In this document: positions 1-5,066 of the stretch, piece after piece | Layout of the letters: each line of letters opens with the position of its first letter | Numbering within the stretch: the stretch's first letter is position 1 | Source: a virus | Taxonomy: Duplodnaviria > Heunggongvirae > Uroviricota > Caudoviricetes | Strand: one strand, 5' to 3' | Virus record (IMG/VR): IMGVR_UViG_2547132272_000021 | Coordinates: 1 to 7,024 of that record | Length of the DNA stretch: 7,024 bases | Made by a program: the position numbers and the translations under genes | The notes under the pieces: model-generated | The model's input: the letters and a program-made list of their open reading frames with translations, nothing else | What the model was told of the DNA's origin: nothing | Database searches by the model: none

Positions 1-87
1 CCATACCCACGGATTACGGGTGCTGGTCACTGCCCCTTCCAGCTTAAGCTCTCCGCTGAAATCCTCTCCCGGCGTGTTCCAGTGTGA
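1..87 (+). CDS. Possible 3' end of an unidentified upstream gene (partial, enters from left edge)
   Basis: Frame 1 is open from the window edge to TGA at 85-87 and the stretch is visibly GC-richer than the following AT-rich intergenic DNA. The opposite strand is also open here but has no in-frame ATG/GTG/TTG before its stop at 181-183, so + is favoured. No product recognisable from about 28 codons. Confidence 0.25.
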   Translation, partial: PYPRITGAGHCPFQLKLSAEILSRRVPV

Positions 88-475
88 TGGTTCATGATAA
101 ATACGAAAAGAATAATCCGGGATTAGGTTAGTAAAGACGGGAATAGATTGGAGTGAAAAATCTTTTGTATCAGCAGTTTGTTAGCGCAAAGATATGTGTT
201 GGTAAAGTTATCCCTTCATTTCTGTGAAACACGAAAAAATGAAAGGATTACGTGATTGTTTCACTAAAGAGGCGAAAAGATGGTTGATTGTATAAAGTCT
301 TCAAATATGTTCAAAACCGCTTCAATACTGCATTTGAAGCTGGTTTAAGGTGGGGCATAGGTGTCTGATAACAGAATTTACTATAAACTTTGTTGATGCA
401 TCATGAATTTAAATGTTTTTATTTAAAATCAATGCGTTAGTGAATATTACATGATACATAGGTGTAAAGTAGCGC

Positions 476-493
476 ATTGCATATCTATGCAAT
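476..493. promoter_or_regulatory. Perfect 8-2-8 palindrome ATTGCATA-tc-TATGCAAT, candidate operator for a dimeric regulator
   Basis: Read directly: ATTGCATA (476-483) and TATGCAAT (486-493) are exact reverse complements; it lies about 25 bp upstream of a candidate -35 hexamer. Confidence 0.4.
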
Positions 494-517
494 ATGTGTC
501 GGATGTGCATAAACACT

Positions 518-550
518 TGCCAACCAATTTTATTGTTGATAACTTATAAA
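518..550 (+). promoter_or_regulatory. Candidate sigma70-type promoter (TTGCCA, about 17 bp spacer, TAACTT/TATAAA) pointing rightward
   Basis: Hexamers read by eye at 518-523 and 541-550 with roughly canonical spacing, just upstream of a hairpin and an intrinsic terminator. Not computed with a promoter model. Confidence 0.25.
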
Positions 551-633
551 AGCACTCGATAAAGTCGAGTGTCGGGCGTAGGAACCCGTGTAAGCACATG
601 GCGACACAAGACGCGCCAAGCGTCTTTTTTATT
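551..633 (+). ncRNA. Candidate short terminated transcript (small RNA or leader), about 80 nt
   Basis: 5' hairpin CACTCGA-taaag-TCGAGTG (553-571), a short stem CGGG/CCCG (about 573-588) and a terminator hairpin plus T-run at 608-633, all directly downstream of the candidate promoter. No ORF with an RBS inside. Confidence 0.3.
608..633 (+). terminator. Rho-independent terminator (AAGACGC-gccaa-GCGTCTT followed by TTTTTTATT)
   Basis: 7-bp GC-rich stem (608-614 / 620-626), 5-nt loop, T-run 625-630 then ATT. Confidence 0.55.
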
Positions 634-689
634 GTCGTAATATCAGCGCACCTGCATTCAGTGGCTTATGGTGCACCGTATCTATGGTG

Positions 690-800
690 GCGCTGGTGGG
701 GCAGTCGAAAGGCTGGCCGGTTTCCTTGTGCGCCGGTATTCCTACCCCCGCCAGCGTCACCGCCCCTTATGAGTGTAGGAACTCAGGCGGTGACTCCTTA
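690..800 (+). ncRNA. GC-rich structured leader upstream of the icd-like gene; candidate C4/CI-type antisense RNA or cis-regulatory structure
   Basis: Long-range pairing GCGCTGGTGGGG (about 691-702) with CCCCGCCAGCG (about 746-757, one G-U), plus hairpin GTCACCGCC (757-765) / GGCGGTGAC (785-793). The six-frame ORFs here (598-801, 684-896) lack RBSs. In phage P1 an icd gene follows the c4 antisense RNA in the immI operon. Confidence 0.3.
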
Positions 801-823
801 AATTTGCACGAGGAGGCTGCCAA

Positions 824-1021
824 ATGGCTACGACCCCAACCACTTTACGCTCTGAATTTACCTTTCATTTTCTGGCTGTTCGCCGTTCCGATCTGAACGA
901 CCGCCCACACCGCGAATCTATTAACGCACCTGATGAAGCAACTGCCCGTCGTATGCTGGCACGTGATTTTGTGTTGGTGTTTGCTGCCTGCATCCCTGCT
1001 AAAGGGGGTAAACATGAATAA
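824..1021 (+). CDS. Small protein (65 aa), probably host cell division inhibitor Icd-like family
   Basis: Strong SD GAGGAGG at 812-818, 5 nt before ATG 824. The sequence (FLAVRRSDL ... ARDFVLVFAA) matches my recollection of Icd-like proteins found in P4-like and P1-like elements; not verified by search. Its stop overlaps the start of the next gene (ATGAATAA). Confidence 0.55.
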   Translation: MATTPTTLRSEFTFHFLAVRRSDLNDRPHRESINAPDEATARRMLARDFVLVFAACIPAKGGKHE

Positions 1022-1418
1022 TGTTGTCAAGTTTCCGGTGCGGAATAATAAAAAAGTTGCGAAATCGAGAGAAGATATTGCTGTAAATCTGTTTAAAGAT
1101 ATTGTTGCTGCTTTATCAAAACAGGCGCGTGACTATATTAATGATGGCGTTACCGGGATCAATGGATGCCTAGATGGTAATGGCGGATATGAAACCTTTC
1201 TATCCTCTTTGTTGCTTTATATTCGTGGCATTGACTCAAAAATTGGCCTGTTTAGTATGTCTCTTGATTCAATACATCCAATACTACATGATGCATGCAA
1301 TGACTTAACGAAAGTTATTTCCCTGACGGAGCGTTTTATTGAAAGTAGAGGCGTAATCGCAGAGGCGGCAAATGGAAAACTTACAGAAGAACAAACGCGG
1401 CAGACTTTCAAAAATTGA
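1014..1418 (+). CDS. Hypothetical protein (134 aa), function unknown
   Basis: ATG 1014 preceded by strong SD AAAGGGGG (1000-1008); overlaps the icd-like stop and is overlapped at its 3' end by the next gene, implying translational coupling. AT-rich codon usage. The six-frame ORF beginning at 933 is out of frame with icd and has no RBS, so 1014 is preferred. Confidence 0.6.
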   Translation: MNNVVKFPVRNNKKVAKSREDIAVNLFKDIVAALSKQARDYINDGVTGINGCLDGNGGYETFLSSLLLYIRGIDSKIGLFSMSLDSIHPILHDACNDLTKVISLTERFIESRGVIAEAANGKLTEEQTRQTFKN

Positions 1419-1734
1419 ATTGCTGCCTGAAAAGATAAAAAGGAAGCTTGATAAAATGCTTATCTCACGTAAGTATTCTCAGGCTGAAATTCTAAATATC
1501 ATAGATCAGGATATAGTAATAGCAGGGTGTTCAGAACTGGTCATATCCAAAACCGGATTGAACAGATATGCGATTAGTTTAATCAATGCTGTTTCGGTAG
1601 CCAAGAAGCATGGAGAAGTGTCTCGCCGTTATAAGCATGCCGAACTACACAGGAGACTTGATAAACTTGAATCAAAGATAGACAGATTAGGGACCAGACT
1701 TGAACGAGTGTTAGAGCTTCTCGAAAAACATTAA
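1372..1734 (+). CDS. Mu gp27-like DNA-binding protein (DUF3486 family; putative small terminase-like or packaging/regulatory protein), 120 aa
   Basis: SD AGAGG at 1361-1365, 6 nt before ATG 1372. N-terminal motif RGRLSKIELLPEKIKRKL ... SQAEILNII ... SKTGLNRYAISL matches the pattern I recall for Mu gp27/DUF3486 proteins (GRKS.ID.LP.EIR ... S.S.L.RY), followed by a coiled-coil-like C-terminus. Ends immediately before an intrinsic terminator. Confidence 0.7.
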   Translation: MENLQKNKRGRLSKIELLPEKIKRKLDKMLISRKYSQAEILNIIDQDIVIAGCSELVISKTGLNRYAISLINAVSVAKKHGEVSRRYKHAELHRRLDKLESKIDRLGTRLERVLELLEKH

Positions 1735-1742
1735 CTATCCCA

Positions 1743-1768
1743 AAGCCGCCCCGTGCGGCTTTTTTATT
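1743..1768 (+). terminator. Rho-independent terminator (AAGCCGC-cccgt-GCGGCTT followed by TTTTTTATTGT)
   Basis: 7-bp GC-rich stem (1743-1749 / 1755-1761), 5-nt loop, T-run 1760-1765, about 10 nt after the stop of the gp27-like gene. Confidence 0.7.
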
Positions 1769-1938
1769 GTTTGGCACTCGCTGTACATATCAGCGCATAT
1801 TTCATGGAAAACGGTAAATCTATCTTCCCTAAAAATCCCGAGTAATCTCACAGCATCCAGAGCAAACGGAGATGGTTCTTTTTTGAAAAAATTATGTTTT
1901 ATCACAATCGGGGATAAACTTATTTTTGATTCCCATAT

Positions 1939-1973
1939 CCGCAATAATCGTTATCGTAACATTGCGGATAACG
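1939..1973. promoter_or_regulatory. Overlapping dyad symmetries (CCGCAAT/ATTGCGG and CGTTATC/GATAACG), candidate operator upstream of the 2055 operon
   Basis: CCGCAAT (1939-1945) with ATTGCGG (1961-1967) and CGTTATC (1949-1955) with GATAACG (1967-1973) are exact reverse-complement pairs in the intergenic region preceding the next gene. Confidence 0.35.
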
Positions 1974-2054
1974 TTAAGTTTGCTGCAAGCATTGGCTATC
2001 GCGCATCGCGCTCAAATGTACACAGGTATATGCAAAAGCTTAAGCGAGAAGATT

Positions 2055-2783
2055 ATGGCTAAACAAACCTTTAAAAATCTCATGTTAACGCCGCCACACA
2101 ATGATATTACAGCGATAAATAAATTCATTGTTTCTTCATGCTTTTCTCGTGATATCTGTGATGTTATGTCTTATATCGGTAAAATGGGATATGCATGTAA
2201 TTATAATGAAGTCAGTGAGCATGTGAAATTGATTGAAAAACAATTCCACGCAGTAAAACATGAACAGAGAGGCGAGTGTGAAATTGATGTTTTTTGTAAT
2301 GTCGCAGGCACCGCTCTCTTTAATGAATTTATATCTGTTTGCGGGAAACAGACGTTCTATCTTGATGCAATGAAATTTGAACCGGATTTTTTTAGTGGTG
2401 GCCCGGTTAAGCATATCCGCAAAACTGCTATTATCGCTTTATTGAGAAATGAAACAAAGATTCTTCCAGAAAGTGTGACCATGATTATGGGCGCTATTGA
2501 GGCGGCATTAAAAAAAATTGGAGTAGACCCACAAGAAGAAGTAAACAGCACGACAAAAATATTCATTGCAACAAAGGCATTTCTGGAAGTTGTAGGTGGA
2601 ATTCAGTTTTATTTACCTAAGGCCGACTCACTTAGTAGAATAATGAAAAAAGCAAATATATATGCAGATAGTTATGTTATGTCTCCTGCTGAACTAGCTA
2701 TTAAATATGGGGAGTCTGGTAAATCGATATACACAACAATAAAACATGTAGGAGCGGTTATTGGTAATCATGAGCAAAGTTAA
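2055..2783 (+). CDS. Hypothetical protein (about 243 aa from ATG 2055; alternative starts at 2016 or TTG 1926), function unknown
   Basis: Long open frame with AT-rich codon usage; ATG 2055 has a weak SD-like GAGAAG 4 nt upstream, whereas 2016 and 1926 lack one. Cys-containing N-terminal half; no catalytic motif recognised. 3' end overlaps the next gene by 14 nt. Confidence 0.6.
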   Translation: MAKQTFKNLMLTPPHNDITAINKFIVSSCFSRDICDVMSYIGKMGYACNYNEVSEHVKLIEKQFHAVKHEQRGECEIDVFCNVAGTALFNEFISVCGKQTFYLDAMKFEPDFFSGGPVKHIRKTAIIALLRNETKILPESVTMIMGAIEAALKKIGVDPQEEVNSTTKIFIATKAFLEVVGGIQFYLPKADSLSRIMKKANIYADSYVMSPAELAIKYGESGKSIYTTIKHVGAVIGNHEQS

Positions 2784-3192
2784 CATAAATAATGCACACA
2801 TATTACAAACAGGTCTGAGCCTCGGTATTGATGTAATGAGAAGTAATCTTCCTGAAGAGTTAAAACTTGTAGAACGTGCAGTTATTGAATCATGTAATGA
2901 TATTGGCTTAAATCCAGAGCATGAAATTAATGGTTTATCATTTATTGGTCGGGTCATATTAAAAATAATGGAACTACAAACCGGATGTAGTTTCATACCT
3001 GAGTATGCGATTGATTCATCCAGAATTATTTTTATTTCTAAAGTTGCTGCATATGCAGAAAAATTTGGAGCAGATAAAGCAGCCAAAGCCTACTCCATTA
3101 CAGTAGATCAGGTTACGGAAATGATGAATGAAGCAAGTATGTTTGTTTCCCAATTTGATGATTTTGGTATAGACAAGGAGAAAAGCCACTGA
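2770..3192 (+). CDS. Hypothetical protein (141 aa), function unknown; translationally coupled to the upstream gene
   Basis: ATG 2770 lies inside the end of the previous ORF (14-nt overlap); continuous open frame with the same AT-rich composition; no recognisable domain. Confidence 0.6.
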   Translation: MSKVNINNAHILQTGLSLGIDVMRSNLPEELKLVERAVIESCNDIGLNPEHEINGLSFIGRVILKIMELQTGCSFIPEYAIDSSRIIFISKVAAYAEKFGADKAAKAYSITVDQVTEMMNEASMFVSQFDDFGIDKEKSH

Positions 3193-3246
3193 AACACGCT
3201 GTGATGTTGTTTTGTCTTATCGGCGGTGTTCTGGGTGCCCTGCACC

Positions 3247-3290
3247 TTTTTGAAGGTGCTACGGTGTTTTTGAAGGGGTTTTGAAGGGGG
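3247..3290 (+). repeat. Three direct copies of TTTTTGAAGG(GG) immediately upstream of the head-gene operon; candidate activator-binding or late-promoter element
   Basis: Copies at 3247-3256, 3267-3278 and 3279-3290; the last G-run may double as the SD for ATG 3301. A related TTTTTTGAAAAAA occurs at about 1880-1893 upstream of the 2055 operon. Confidence 0.4.
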
Positions 3291-3300
3291 TTTTGCATCC

Positions 3301-4140
3301 ATGACAGAGGAACTAATGAATATAATCGCTTTATGCACTGATTTATCGGGTGATAAGACTCCTCCGGAATGGGTTGAGTTACTGCCAGCAGGACCGGAAA
3401 TTGAAGGGCGTGACGGAAGGAGCTGGACACTTAAAGATCCACAAAGCATTAAACAGGCGTTTTCGTGTCGCGGAATGTCACTTGTGGTCGATTATGAACA
3501 CTCTACAGAAGTGATTGCACCAAAAGGTGGCGAGGCTCCTGCCGCCGGATGGATTAATGACGTTGCTGTCCGTAATGATGGTTCTGTATGGGGAAGAGTT
3601 GAATGGACTCCACGGGCAATGAATTCCATTACATCCCGTGAATACCGATACCTTTCACCAGCGTTCCGTCATTCTCAGGATGGTGAAATACTGGAACTCG
3701 TTAGCGTGGCGTTAACGAATAAACCAAATCTGAAACTTACTGCGCTGAATACTCAGCAGACACTTAGCAAAATCGCACTGGCACTTAATATGGAGGAAGT
3801 TAATTCACTTGAAGAAGTGCTGACAGCGTTAAATAAAAGACAAGCTGAACAACATAGTCAGATTGTAAATGAATATATCGAAAAAGCTGTTTTCTGTCCG
3901 GCCCAGCGGAATATTCTTCTGTCCATGTGTTCAAGTGTTGGAGAAAATGCATTCAGGAAGTTTGCTGATATGCAGGAAAAATCGACGAGTAATTTTTTAC
4001 ACTTTGCTAGGCCTGTAAGTGTAAAAGGTAAAGAACCCCCGAGAACGCTTACTGAATCGCAACTGGCTGTTTGCCGCATTACAGGTGTAAGCGAAGAAGA
4101 CTATTTGATAGCTTTAGGAAAAGAAAATGAAAGATATTAA
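3301..4140 (+). CDS. Mu I-like head maturation protease / scaffold protein (279 aa)
   Basis: Sits immediately upstream of, and overlaps by 14 nt, a clear Mu gpT-like major head gene, which is the Mu I-T arrangement. Motifs VEWTPRA, YRYLSPAF and ALTNKPNL fit my recollection of the Mu-like prophage I protein family; the C-terminal third is helical and charged, as expected for a scaffold. An alternative start at ATG 3316 (SD GAGG 3307-3310) is possible. Confidence 0.72.
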   Translation: MTEELMNIIALCTDLSGDKTPPEWVELLPAGPEIEGRDGRSWTLKDPQSIKQAFSCRGMSLVVDYEHSTEVIAPKGGEAPAAGWINDVAVRNDGSVWGRVEWTPRAMNSITSREYRYLSPAFRHSQDGEILELVSVALTNKPNLKLTALNTQQTLSKIALALNMEEVNSLEEVLTALNKRQAEQHSQIVNEYIEKAVFCPAQRNILLSMCSSVGENAFRKFADMQEKSTSNFLHFARPVSVKGKEPPRTLTESQLAVCRITGVSEEDYLIALGKENERY

Positions 4141-5023
4141 TTGTGTAATTGCTGATGCTACTATCGCTTTTAACGCCAAGTTTGAATCAGGAAAAAAAGC
4201 CTACAATCCTGTACATCCAACGATTGCTTCAGAAGTAACGTCTTCATCGGCAGTTAGTGCTTATGGCTTCCTCGAAGATTTCCCGGAAATCAAAGAGTGG
4301 TTAAACGACCGACAGTTAAAATCACTGTCAACCCGTGATTATTTTCTGAAAAATAAAACGTTTGAAAGCAGCATTCAAATTAAACGTGAGGATTTTGAAG
4401 ATAATGATTATGGTAAGTATTCAATGGTTTTTGAACAGTACGGGCGCAAAGCGGCTGCATTCCCTGATAAGTTACTGTTTGAAGCTATGAAGAAAGGGCA
4501 CTTATCAGAAGGAATTGATGGGCATAACTTCTTTGCTACTGACCATCCTAATGGTGAAGGCGTTTATTCAAACCTCTATGGAAGCAATCCAGCAAAAAAT
4601 GCAGATGCAACGCCGTTATGGTACTTATTTGATGGTAGTCAGGGATTGAAACCTTTTATTTATCAGGTTCGTCGTCCAATGGCTGTAACTTCTGTTACTG
4701 ATTCCGGCGCTACCGATGTGTTTCTGAATAATCGTTTTCTGTTTGGTGTTGATGGGCGTCTTAATGTTGGATATGCAATGTGGCAATGCGCAGCGGCATC
4801 ATGGGATACGCTGAATGAAACCACATTTAATGAAGTGTACGACGGGATGTTATCCGTTAAGGGAAGTAGCGGTGAACCATTGGGAATCGTGCCTACTGTT
4901 ATTGTAGTCCCCGTATCGTTAAGAGCCGCAGCGGAAAAATTGCTGTTACGTCAGTATCTGGATAACGGGGAAGACAATCCAAATTATAAACGCGTGGAAA
5001 TTATTGTTTCACCATTTATTTGA
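4127..5023 (+). CDS. Major head (capsid) subunit, Mu gpT-like family (298 aa)
   Basis: SD AGGAA at 4116-4120 before ATG 4127. Multiple motifs match the Mu T protein as I recall it: NKTFE, EDFEDN, GRKAAAFPD.LLFEA, GHNFFATDHP, WYLFDGSQGLKPFIYQ.R, NVGYAMWQCAA, VVPVSLRAAA, NGEDNPNY. Length also matches. Confidence 0.85.
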   Translation: MKDINCVIADATIAFNAKFESGKKAYNPVHPTIASEVTSSSAVSAYGFLEDFPEIKEWLNDRQLKSLSTRDYFLKNKTFESSIQIKREDFEDNDYGKYSMVFEQYGRKAAAFPDKLLFEAMKKGHLSEGIDGHNFFATDHPNGEGVYSNLYGSNPAKNADATPLWYLFDGSQGLKPFIYQVRRPMAVTSVTDSGATDVFLNNRFLFGVDGRLNVGYAMWQCAAASWDTLNETTFNEVYDGMLSVKGSSGEPLGIVPTVIVVPVSLRAAAEKLLLRQYLDNGEDNPNYKRVEIIVSPFI

Positions 5024-5029
5024 TAATTC

Positions 5030-5054
5030 GGAGGGGATTTCCCCTCCTGTTTTT
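5030..5054 (+). terminator. GC-rich hairpin plus short T-run just after the capsid gene stop; possible partial terminator/attenuator
   Basis: GGAGGGG (5030-5036) - attt - CCCCTCC (5041-5047) followed by TGTTTTTAT. The T-run is short (5 T) and overlaps the first candidate ATG of the next gene. Confidence 0.4.
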
Positions 5055-5066
5055 ATGGGGAATATA

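Follow-up and report, generated by a model that had tools for sequence, protein, structure and literature searches.

A gp27-like gene in an apparent natural mini-Mu element of Enterobacteriaceae and its possible part in packaging by Mu-like phages

What can a gene of the Mu gp27 type do when no large terminase gene stands beside it? The question is raised by a 7,024-nt stretch of viral DNA (IMG/VR record IMGVR_UViG_2547132272_000021, positions 1–7,024; the whole stretch is called the window below), which carries a short gp27-like open reading frame, gp27L. A preliminary description of the window had recognized this gene as small-terminase-like and isolated, and had proposed that it belongs to an element that redirects the packaging machinery of a helper phage in the manner of phage-inducible islands. 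The gp27L gene apparently comes from a family, not described before, of Enterobacteriaceae transposable elements that are non-autonomous, depend on Mu and encode a capsid. Window positions 83–6980 form a non-autonomous Mu-type element, a natural mini-Mu, because Mu-type ends are present but neither an A nor a B gene is encoded. It is very likely that this element is a helper-dependent mini-Mu relying on a co-resident Mu-like prophage. Packaging and transfer of the element as a satellite is favored with more reserve, and a part for gp27L in pac recognition or in biasing packaging is a tentative assignment. The best overall explanation, a natural mini-Mu satellite, is given a probability of about 0.55.

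Ends, target-site duplications and copies of the element

The element is a discrete 6,898-bp unit (83..6980, plus strand) with 5′-TG...CA-3′ termini, which read 5′-TGTGATGGTTCATGATAAATACGAAAAG... at the left and ...CGCCTCA-3′ at the right. Its ends are made up as follows.

78..82 (no strand): left copy of the target-site duplication TCCAG; the same 5-mer recurs at 6981–6985
83..6980 (+): whole non-autonomous Mu-type element, without transposase, large terminase (TerL) or portal gene; 12 complete copies show perfect 5-bp duplications
83..110 (+): terminal repeat L1, TGTGATGGTTCATGATAAATACGAAAAG, resembling a Mu transposase site and collinear in alignment with L1 of resident Mu-type prophages
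223..279 (+): inner left-end repeats L2 (223–239) and L3 (254–279), which align to L2 and L3 of Mu-type prophages
6925..6980 (-): R1 and R2, the repeats of the right end, with the reverse complement TGAGGCGTTTCACAAAAAGCGCGAAAGCATCTCACAAAAAGCGCGAAA; Mu-type right ends have TGAAGCGGCGCACGAAAAACGCGAAAACGTTTCACGATAAATGCGAAAAC
6981..6985 (no strand): right copy of the target-site duplication TCCAG

The first 240 nt of the element follow the left ends of Mu-like prophages segment by segment, through L1, a CCGGGA...CGGGA region, L2 and L3. At the right end there are two CACAAAAAGCGCGAAA repeats, the counterparts of which in Mu are CACGAAAAACGCGAAA and CACGATAAATGCGAAA. Near-classical Mu termini are found in the E. 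coli Mu-like prophages of strains ETEC1732, UMNF18 and 54214.

Window positions 1–82 and 6986–7024 are the two halves of faeI, a minor subunit gene of the F4/K88-type fimbrial operon. When the flanks are fused with a single TCCAG, the resulting 121 nt give a gapless 99.2% alignment to intact faeI and thus represent the empty site. The faeI gene lies on plasmids at 129 of the 153 places where it was found. A plasmid-borne copy in faeI would offer the element a second route between cells. The preliminary description had left room for a large terminase gene in canonical arrangement just beyond the window; this is excluded because the element stops at 6980 inside the split faeI, and the flanks consist of faeI sequence only. 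No large terminase gene is present in the window, as had been noted, and the same holds for more than 12 other copies of the element.

Perfect 5-bp duplications are found in 12/12 complete copies, every copy at a different locus (TCCAG, GCCAG, TCCAC twice, CTGTA, ATCAG, ACCCA, CTGAG, ACCGG, ATGGA, ATGTG and GCGCC). Position 2 of the duplication is a pyrimidine and position 3 a G or C in all 12. The target preference of Mu is N-Y-G/C-R-N, and the pyrimidine-then-G/C pattern is its core. The element therefore displays the marks of a Mu-type element, i.e. TG...CA termini with attL (L1, L2–L3) and attR (R1–R2) repeats, and 5-bp duplications at near-random targets. The list of open reading frames and the Pfam and PHROG profile searches show no open reading frame or domain for transposase A or ATPase B in the element, and its genes include no large terminase, no portal and no tail gene except the tape measure.

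A megablast search of 5,426 complete E. coli genomes gave the same approximately 6.9-kb sequence in eight, starting near 79–83 and ending near 6980–6986. The copy in UMNF18 splits the LysR gene ycaN, that in strain 54214 splits yddA, and that in 1424KP is intergenic. The STEC388 copy is situated in an autotransporter gene and is cut by the insertion sequence (IS) IS1, which replaces the tape-measure end (locus L002, 16983–17700). The left end of the element is found at 14 places in nine of the complete genomes. A Mu-type A gene is present in 9/9 of these element-bearing genomes versus 94/5,426 overall. Within one clone the sites of insertion are flgH/flgI, puuC, yiaK, ddpC, yddA, a position beside a D-lyxose isomerase gene and one intergenic position; in the same clone the element is missing from ten clone-mates, and two copies are found in five of the seven carriers. 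The pattern is one of repeated and recent insertion into genomes that provide Mu transposase. None of the plasmids in PLSDB carries the element, and the plasmid matches consist of empty faeI sites and tape-measure fragments only.

Between its left end and the beginning of the tape-measure gene, the Mu-like prophage of strain 54214 appears complete, and it contains a canonical DUF3486–TerL gene pair. Such pairs sit elsewhere in the element-bearing genomes, within Mu-like prophages. The usual position of a DUF3486 gene directly upstream of the large terminase gene, on which the preliminary description had relied, is thus seen in the resident prophages and not in the element. As in a satellite, genes essential to the virion and to replication are missing from the element but present in a phage found in the same genomes. 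The helper-exploiting element proposed earlier is upheld as to helper dependence, with the TerL pair located in a co-resident Mu-like prophage; it is a Mu-type transposon, however, and not an integrase-based island like the phage-inducible chromosomal islands (PICIs). A redirection of packaging by gp27L is putative. In UMNF18, another Mu-type A gene is found near 1.46 Mb.

The gp27-like protein, the pac-like site and the operon

The features that bear on packaging and on expression of gp27L are listed here.

118..151 (+): pac-like site, a pair of 14-nt direct repeats with a spacing of 20 bp, CGGGATTAGGTTAG-N6-CGGGAATAGATTGG, inside the left end by 35 nt
552..630 (+): small RNA of the isrK family that has a terminator of its own (hairpin 608–626; Rfam RF01394, 59.4 bits, gathering threshold 50)
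680..767 (+): P1/P7 immI-type C4 antisense RNA (full-length match to Rfam RF01695, 77.1 bits, gathering threshold 45)
824..1021 (+): icd-like gene, 65 aa (NCBIfam phage_ICD_like, 3.5e-20; phrog_6928 and phrog_1743)
1014..1418 (+): ORF134, an all-helical orphan that overlaps both neighbors
1372..1734 (+): gp27L, 120 aa, N-terminal DUF3486 DNA-binding domain (PF11985 match) and C-terminal coiled coil
1742..1772 (+): hairpin and T-run ending the icd–ORF134–gp27L operon (terminator scan); kept after gp27L in element types B and C

The gp27L sequence matches the Phage_Mu_Gp27 profile PF11985 with 38.6 bits (cut-off 28, E = 1.9e-9), above the curated threshold, and phrog_426, ‘terminase small subunit’, with 9e-14. 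The gp27-like/DUF3486 identity suggested earlier is therefore sound, but it is restricted to N-terminal residues 15–83, which correspond to profile positions 1–64 of 173. Residues 1–70 share a 45% identity with the N-terminus of the 193-aa DUF3486 protein of resident Mu-like prophages, and the invariant residues R11, S13, K14, L18, P19, L26, L30, Q37, S59, L63 and R65 are kept. From about residue 76 the alignment shows gp27L departing into a heptad-like helix, HAELHRRLDKLESKIDRLGTRLERVLELLEKH. It is not a full-length DUF3486 protein: relatives have 187–194 aa, and a 45-aa coiled coil replaces their last approximately 115 residues. Judged by its sequence, gp27L is predicted to combine the DNA-recognition head of Mu gp27 with a new tail for oligomerization.

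A HMMER search of 1.84 billion representative proteins yielded just 30 relatives of gp27L. One cluster only aligns with it from end to end; the others are the 187–194-aa DUF3486 proteins, which align over their N-terminal approximately 70 residues, and a few short forms. Short gp27-like proteins of 113–116 aa (P0015, P0033 and P0038) show an N-terminal extension and a short C-terminal helix, a design as in gp27L. The exact gp27L sequence of the window is WP_071988105.1 of Escherichia sp. TW09231. A scan of the GTDB species-representative genomes with gp27L gave no match. The AlphaFold2 model shows three short helices and a long helix at 85–119, with low confidence (predicted local distance difference test, pLDDT, 62). 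No solved structure related to gp27L by sequence was found, and Foldseek searches of BFVD and PDB gave nothing significant, the best viral match being a DUF3486 protein with E = 0.35. The ratio of non-synonymous to synonymous substitution rates (dN/dS) of gp27L is 0.12–0.43. Between element types with differing ends and capsid genes, gp27L is the best-conserved module, at 86–93% nt identity versus about 67%.

A pac-like site, which the preliminary description had recommended looking for, is found at 118–151. The repeat pair occurs once in the window and in 0/200 shuffles. The strict pattern is present in 7 of 31 fetched loci, once each and always about 35 nt inside the pac-side element end, a statistic that is partly circular because the pattern was built from the same sequences that were scored. 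Types B and C and the Klebsiella element (described below) carry close versions of the repeats at the same distance from one end, despite differing transposase-binding repeats. Mu-type prophages show CGGGAGGACATTGG-N6-CGGGATTT... at the matching position, and element positions 118–151 align with the Mu-type CCGGGAGGACATTGG...CGGGA region. The pac site of Mu maps to about nt 32–54 of the left end. In Mu packaging, the initial cut is made at a fixed distance outside one end and is followed by headful packaging (PMC5557969).

The gene order is consistent with the overlapping arrangement reported in the preliminary description. The end of icd runs 8 nt into ORF134 (ATGAATAA), and ORF134 and gp27L overlap by 47 nt, with a Shine-Dalgarno-like AGAGG 6 nt ahead of the ATG at 1372. 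The icd-like assignment and the 134-aa length of the second frame agree with what had been described, and so does the terminator at which gp27L ends. Translational coupling of ORF134 and gp27L is plausible from the sequence because of the 47-nt overlap and the AGAGG before the gp27L ATG; the overlap of the two frames persists in related elements, with lengths of 32, 35 and 11 nt. ORF134 has no match in Pfam, PHROG, NCBIfam or PADLOC searches, and its homologues occur solely within these elements. Its dN/dS is 0.42–0.64 and its AlphaFold2 model has a pLDDT of 53. Among the element proteins NCBIfam recognizes the icd-like protein alone, and PADLOC gives no credible defence match for the element.

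The order C4, icd and overlapping open reading frames resembles that of P1 immI, but in the element ORF134 and gp27L occupy the ant position; neither is related by sequence to Ant in Pfam and PHROG searches. The icd–X–gp27L triad persists in the type C and Klebsiella elements, whose upstream regulators differ. In related copies, RefSeq draws an ‘ash family protein’ coding region over the C4 RNA, which is probably a mis-call. A late-promoter-like similarity at about 1798–1820, after the gp27L terminator, was rejected, its score falling inside the shuffle range.

Activators, head genes and relatives of the element

Downstream of the gp27L operon are two activator genes, a short cis block, two head genes and a tail gene.

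2055..2783 (+): long Mor-family activator, 242 aa, Mor domain C-terminal (PF08765, 3.7e-8; phrog_532 late transcriptional activator; dN/dS 0.16–0.37)
2770..3192 (+): ORF140/143, remote second Mor-family paralogue (93 aa align at 29% identity with the C-terminal region of the long Mor; dN/dS about 0.1)
3240..3294 (+): 55-nt cis block common to Mu-type helpers, of central strong-gyrase-site or late-promoter type (alignment score 73)
3316..4140 (+): Mu I-type head protease/scaffold, 274 aa, or 279 aa from a start at 3301 (PF10123, 8e-49; phrog_328)
4127..5023 (+): Mu gpT-type major capsid protein, 298 aa (PF10124, 6e-89)
5067..6854 (+): full-length Mu-type tail tape measure, 595 aa (phrog_973, 8e-107; dN/dS 0.06–0.13)

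The two Mor-family genes of the element recall the Mor and C genes of Mu. The long Mor shares 24–25% identity with Mor of the Mu-like prophages examined. Upstream of it, at 1883–2062, is a 59-aa open reading frame with a TTG start that is kept in the Yersinia element and called in one Salmonella copy; its similarity to PF11985 (the gp27 helix-turn-helix) is faint and non-significant, E = 0.017.

The 55-nt block consists of phased TTTTGAAGG repeats and is about 87% identical between element and helpers; shuffled sequences give a mean score of 15 and a maximum of 26. Each helper has a single copy, which is intergenic and upstream of gene I (locus L021, 34528–34580; locus L005, about 13510–13565). 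It is located at 46% of the length of the element and at about 45% of the helper length, while the DNA around it cannot be aligned between the two. The central strong gyrase site of Mu and the late promoter P_I both map to this region. A strong gyrase site is tentatively favored over a part of P_I because a 43-nt sequence common to the upstream regions of helper lys and I falls downstream of the block.

The element I protein shows 33% identity to helper I (320 aa), with a dN/dS of 0–0.18, and gpT shows 43% identity to helper T, with a dN/dS of 0–0.16. No sequenced phage was found with a capsid more than 43.5% identical to element gpT. The tape measure is mosaic, with 87.6% identity to that of the ETEC1732 Mu-like prophage but just 39–46% to the tape measures of the 54214 and UMNF18 resident helpers. 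A truncated tape measure was considered and rejected, the protein being full length next to the 603-aa Mu-like tape measure. Likewise rejected was a recent deletion derivative of a resident prophage, the proteins being just 33–46% identical.

Relatives of the element were seen in Salmonella, Shigella, Klebsiella, Citrobacter and Yersinia. The capsid relatives of 70–79% identity on the Klebsiella, Citrobacter and Yersinia contigs examined lie in like elements of approximately 6.8 kb, which contain an icd-like gene, an open reading frame of approximately 100–110 aa, a Mor of approximately 245 aa, ORF137, I, T and the tape measure. The Klebsiella element also has a short gp27-like gene at the same position; no recognizable gp27-like gene is found in the Citrobacter and Yersinia elements. 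Smaller types of 4.77 and 5.07 kb in E. coli and Shigella (types B and C) carry gp27L, I, T and two Mor genes and have no tape measure. What recurs in all three E. coli-group types, the window element being type A, is the combination of a short gp27-like gene with I, T and Mor-family activators.

A second type of end is found in E. coli type C and in the Klebsiella elements, where TTTGATAC repeats stand in place of TTCAY...CGAAA. Elements with these ends also show 5-bp duplications, ATAAC and ATCAT (loci L009, 8417–13486, and L027, 5279–12089). In the Klebsiella element the pac-like end is on the tape-measure side, so that the genes run in the opposite orientation with respect to the ends. One type C copy (locus L010, 4805–11668) adjoins late genes of a P2-like prophage (gpO, capsid and terminase small subunit) and may be an insertion into or beside that prophage. 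The Yersinia copy carries an IS between T and the tape measure (locus L031, 10035–11471), and a copy on an IMG/VR contig has a 1.3-kb insertion after gp27L (locus L020, 10420–11754). The capsid region of types B and C has no match in the 5,426 complete E. coli genomes, so co-occurrence with Mu-type A genes can be tested for type A only.

By cluster membership, variants of the element capsid are present on hundreds of contigs; the cluster counts cover assemblies of Escherichia, Salmonella, Klebsiella, Citrobacter and Enterobacter, with single examples in Shigella and Yersinia. All genes are intact and of equal length in the E. coli and Salmonella copies, with dN/dS values against the window of 0–0.64, and these values indicate purifying selection on every element gene. 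Compared with the Salmonella copies, the window shows a synonymous divergence (dS) of 0.03–0.07 for T, I and the tape measure, the capsid gene alone giving 0.03–0.04. The divergence of E. coli and Salmonella as hosts is far above 0.03–0.07. Because dS is far below the host divergence, the element has crossed recently between the two genera, and it has done so without conjugation or integrase genes of its own.

Mode of action and comparison with known systems

A satellite life cycle would run as follows. On induction of the helper, helper A and B would bind L1–L3 and R1–R2 and copy the element by replicative transposition. The two Mor-family activators of the element, or the Mor/C-type activators of the helper, would switch on the I, T and tape-measure genes. 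Heads would be built from the element's own capsid protein and its shorter scaffold (274 vs 320 aa), with the helper portal, and the helper large terminase would package the element by the headful mode from the pac-like repeats inside the left end. The most likely target of gp27L would be the repeats at 118–151, perhaps also the helper's equivalent, where it would bias the choice of DNA by the helper terminase, either by bringing that enzyme to the element or by taking the place of full-length helper gp27. Indirect support for mobilization and transfer in helper particles comes from the pac-like repeats and from the near-identity of E. coli and Salmonella copies.

Several observations weigh against this satellite cycle or against the part given to gp27L in it. 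The co-occurrence with Mu-type A genes comes from three independent lineages only, because seven of the nine genomes are one clone with a 100%-identical A gene. The Mu-like prophage of UMNF18 (in yphC) is internally deleted, with gpT joined to a truncated tail sheath gene (locus L007, 36773–36797). Megablast of the window against phage genomes gave no DNA match, and an IMG/VR scan gave a single match, a copy with rearrangements in a region of an isolate genome that is predicted to be prophage. Integration without a transposase of its own seems to need helper A in the recipient, which would have to be helper-lysogenic or co-infected. As to the protein, gp27L is without the approximately 115 C-terminal DUF3486 residues, the part expected to contact the large terminase, and the structure models of gp27L and ORF134 are of low confidence (pLDDT 62 and 53), coming from shallow alignments. 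The Klebsiella gp27L is barely recognizable while its pac-like repeats are nearly those of E. coli type B, so there is no covariation of protein and site. Finally, the immI-like placement behind isrK, C4 and icd, separated by a terminator from the capsid genes, is more in keeping with an early or regulatory gene product than with a packaging protein made late.

A dominant-negative or regulatory role of gp27L is a serious alternative because gp27L is the N-terminal third of gp27 in a C4-controlled immI-like operon. As a dominant-negative interference factor it would block the helper pac or form dead hetero-oligomers with helper gp27, and the pac of the element would be served by residual helper gp27. 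This is rather unlikely, since blocking a site near-identical to its own would harm the element too and the dN/dS of gp27L is that of ordinary constraint with no positive selection; yet it would explain why a coiled coil replaces the gp27 C-terminus and only profile positions 1–64 of 173 are present, why element and helper pac-like regions have the CCGGGA...CGGGA frame in common, and why gp27L has changed rapidly from genus to genus next to little-changed pac-like repeats, the pattern of an arms race against a protein of the helper. A parallel is found in the S. aureus pathogenicity islands (SaPIs), which have a small terminase (TerS) and a separate packaging blocker, Ppi (PMC6893505). With about the same low likelihood, gp27L and ORF134 could be an early module of regulator or antirepressor type in the place of ant, acting on the helper repressor or operator or on the element's own promoters, and possibly switching on the helper transposase needed for integration. 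Full-length C4, the isrK RNA and an icd-like gene directly upstream of three overlapping frames are what such a module would look like, as are the terminator before the capsid genes, the survival of the icd–X–gp27L triad with different upstream regulators (type C, Klebsiella) and a conserved part of gp27L that is just a helix-turn-helix-like domain. However, the sole detectable relatives of that domain are gp27/DUF3486 proteins, neighbors of large terminases, the element has pac-like repeats, contrary to a purely regulatory gp27L, and neither protein shows similarity to known antirepressors in profile searches.

Other explanations concern the element as a whole. The helper transposase could mobilize it without satellite packaging, with spread by conjugative plasmids and with the capsid, scaffold and tape measure put to some other use, for example as poisons of helper head and tail assembly in an anti-Mu host defence. 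The window copy does lie in a mostly plasmid-borne gene, and T, I and tape measure at 33–46% identity to those of resident helpers could give non-productive mixed assemblies. This is still less probable than either role of gp27L just described: the PLSDB and PADLOC searches offer it nothing, and the retention of pac-like repeats and a gp27-like gene across the E. coli-group types is not easily accounted for unless the element is packaged. An inert deletion remnant of a Mu-like prophage, with the gp27-like gene a functionless leftover, is very improbable. All structural genes do have Mu-family homologues, and damaged copies exist, i.e. the IS1 truncation in STEC388, the IS insertion in Yersinia and the rearranged IMG/VR copy. 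But a remnant would not be expected at no fewer than 13 independent insertion sites with intact ends, nor with the same architecture across genera and purifying selection on all genes, and its capsid lineage is not in any full phage found, with 33–45% identity to resident prophage proteins. The natural mini-Mu satellite therefore remains the best explanation.

Searches of the ORF list, Pfam, PHROG and NCBIfam show no integrase, primase or AlpA in the element, and for this reason it does not belong to the P4-like satellites, the PICIs, the capsid-forming PICIs (cf-PICIs) or the phage-inducible chromosomal island-like elements (PLEs). SatelliteFinder treats integrases as core genes of all satellites (PMC10085698). 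Detection tools anchored on an integrase, and usually on an own replicon, as in these four families, would miss such an element, because the satellite families they detect are integrase-anchored. No description of natural mini-Mu or Mu-dependent satellites was found in the full-text literature searched, and a paper beyond that literature is possible. Transposable satellites of Mu-like phages may constitute a new class, a proposal with not quite an even chance, in which integrase and replicon are absent, the helper transposase both integrates and replicates the element, heads and tape measure are its own, and a truncated gp27 captures or blinds the helper terminase at pac. If this is true, the use of a helper transposase for integration and replication is a different solution to phage parasitism, linking non-autonomous transposons and phage satellites. 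It would also be relevant to gene flow and gene disruption in Enterobacteriaceae, where copies break faeI, ycaN, yddA, puuC, yiaK and ddpC and another lies between flgH and flgI. The system is tractable, with sequenced E. coli isolates that carry an apparently intact Mu-like prophage and with the mature genetics of Mu, and the truncated gp27 is a way into the barely studied pac recognition of Mu-type phages.

In P4 and P2, delta and Ogr are an example of a satellite activator from the activator family of the helper. The Mor-family pair of the element similarly parallels helper Mor and C, and most virion parts would likewise come from the helper. P4, in contrast, has an integrase and its own primase and replicon, and resizes P2 capsids through Sid without a capsid protein of its own. 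The element resembles the immI region of P1/P7 in that a full-length C4 RNA is followed by an icd-like gene and then by overlapping open reading frames; it differs in having ORF134 and gp27L at the ant position and an isrK-type RNA upstream.

In SaPIs and PICIs a small terminase homologue recognizes the satellite pac and a separate factor blocks helper packaging (PMC6893505; PMC10085698). The homology of gp27L to the helper gp27 DNA-binding domain and the pac-like site in the element resemble this, whereas gp27L is an N-terminal third, the element is without integrase, primase or replicon, and its presumed helper is a transposable phage. Rpp of the E. coli PICIs, in work of Fillol-Salom et al. 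from 2019, is said to be a small protein that shifts the site choice of the helper terminase through the helper small terminase, in cos phages, and not to be a small-terminase homologue. In this gp27L differs from Rpp: it is a shortened homologue of small-terminase-like proteins, and the system is of the headful/pac kind. The cf-PICIs, of about 14 kb, carry integrase, AlpA, primase, TerS, TerL, portal, connectors and their own capsid, and take only tails from the helper (PMC10085698). The element shares with them its own capsid and protease with the remaining parts from the helper, as judged here from its genes, but of that set it has just the capsid, the protease and a TerS-like fragment, plus a tail tape measure. 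PmCI172 is a Pasteurella PICI that has a resident Mu-like myovirus as helper and forms small capsids (PMC6893505); it is integrase-based and not a transposable element. The Pseudomonas AH14a/b helper–satellite pair was considered as a precedent and rejected, as it is not Mu-like.

Closest in form are the laboratory mini-Mu and Mud elements, internally deleted versions of Mu whose missing functions a helper Mu supplies. Laboratory mini-Mu is also packaged by helper Mu, by headful from the left-end pac. Mini-Mu constructs are classic substrates for studies of Mu replication (PMC10052514). Like these, the element has two Mu ends, 5-bp duplications and, as presumed here, A/B-driven transposition and replication. 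In contrast to them it is natural, forms a conserved family across genera and has no A, B or repressor gene; and it carries its own, divergent capsid, scaffold/protease and tape measure, whether retained or acquired, two Mor-family genes, a retooled gp27 and an immI-like operon.

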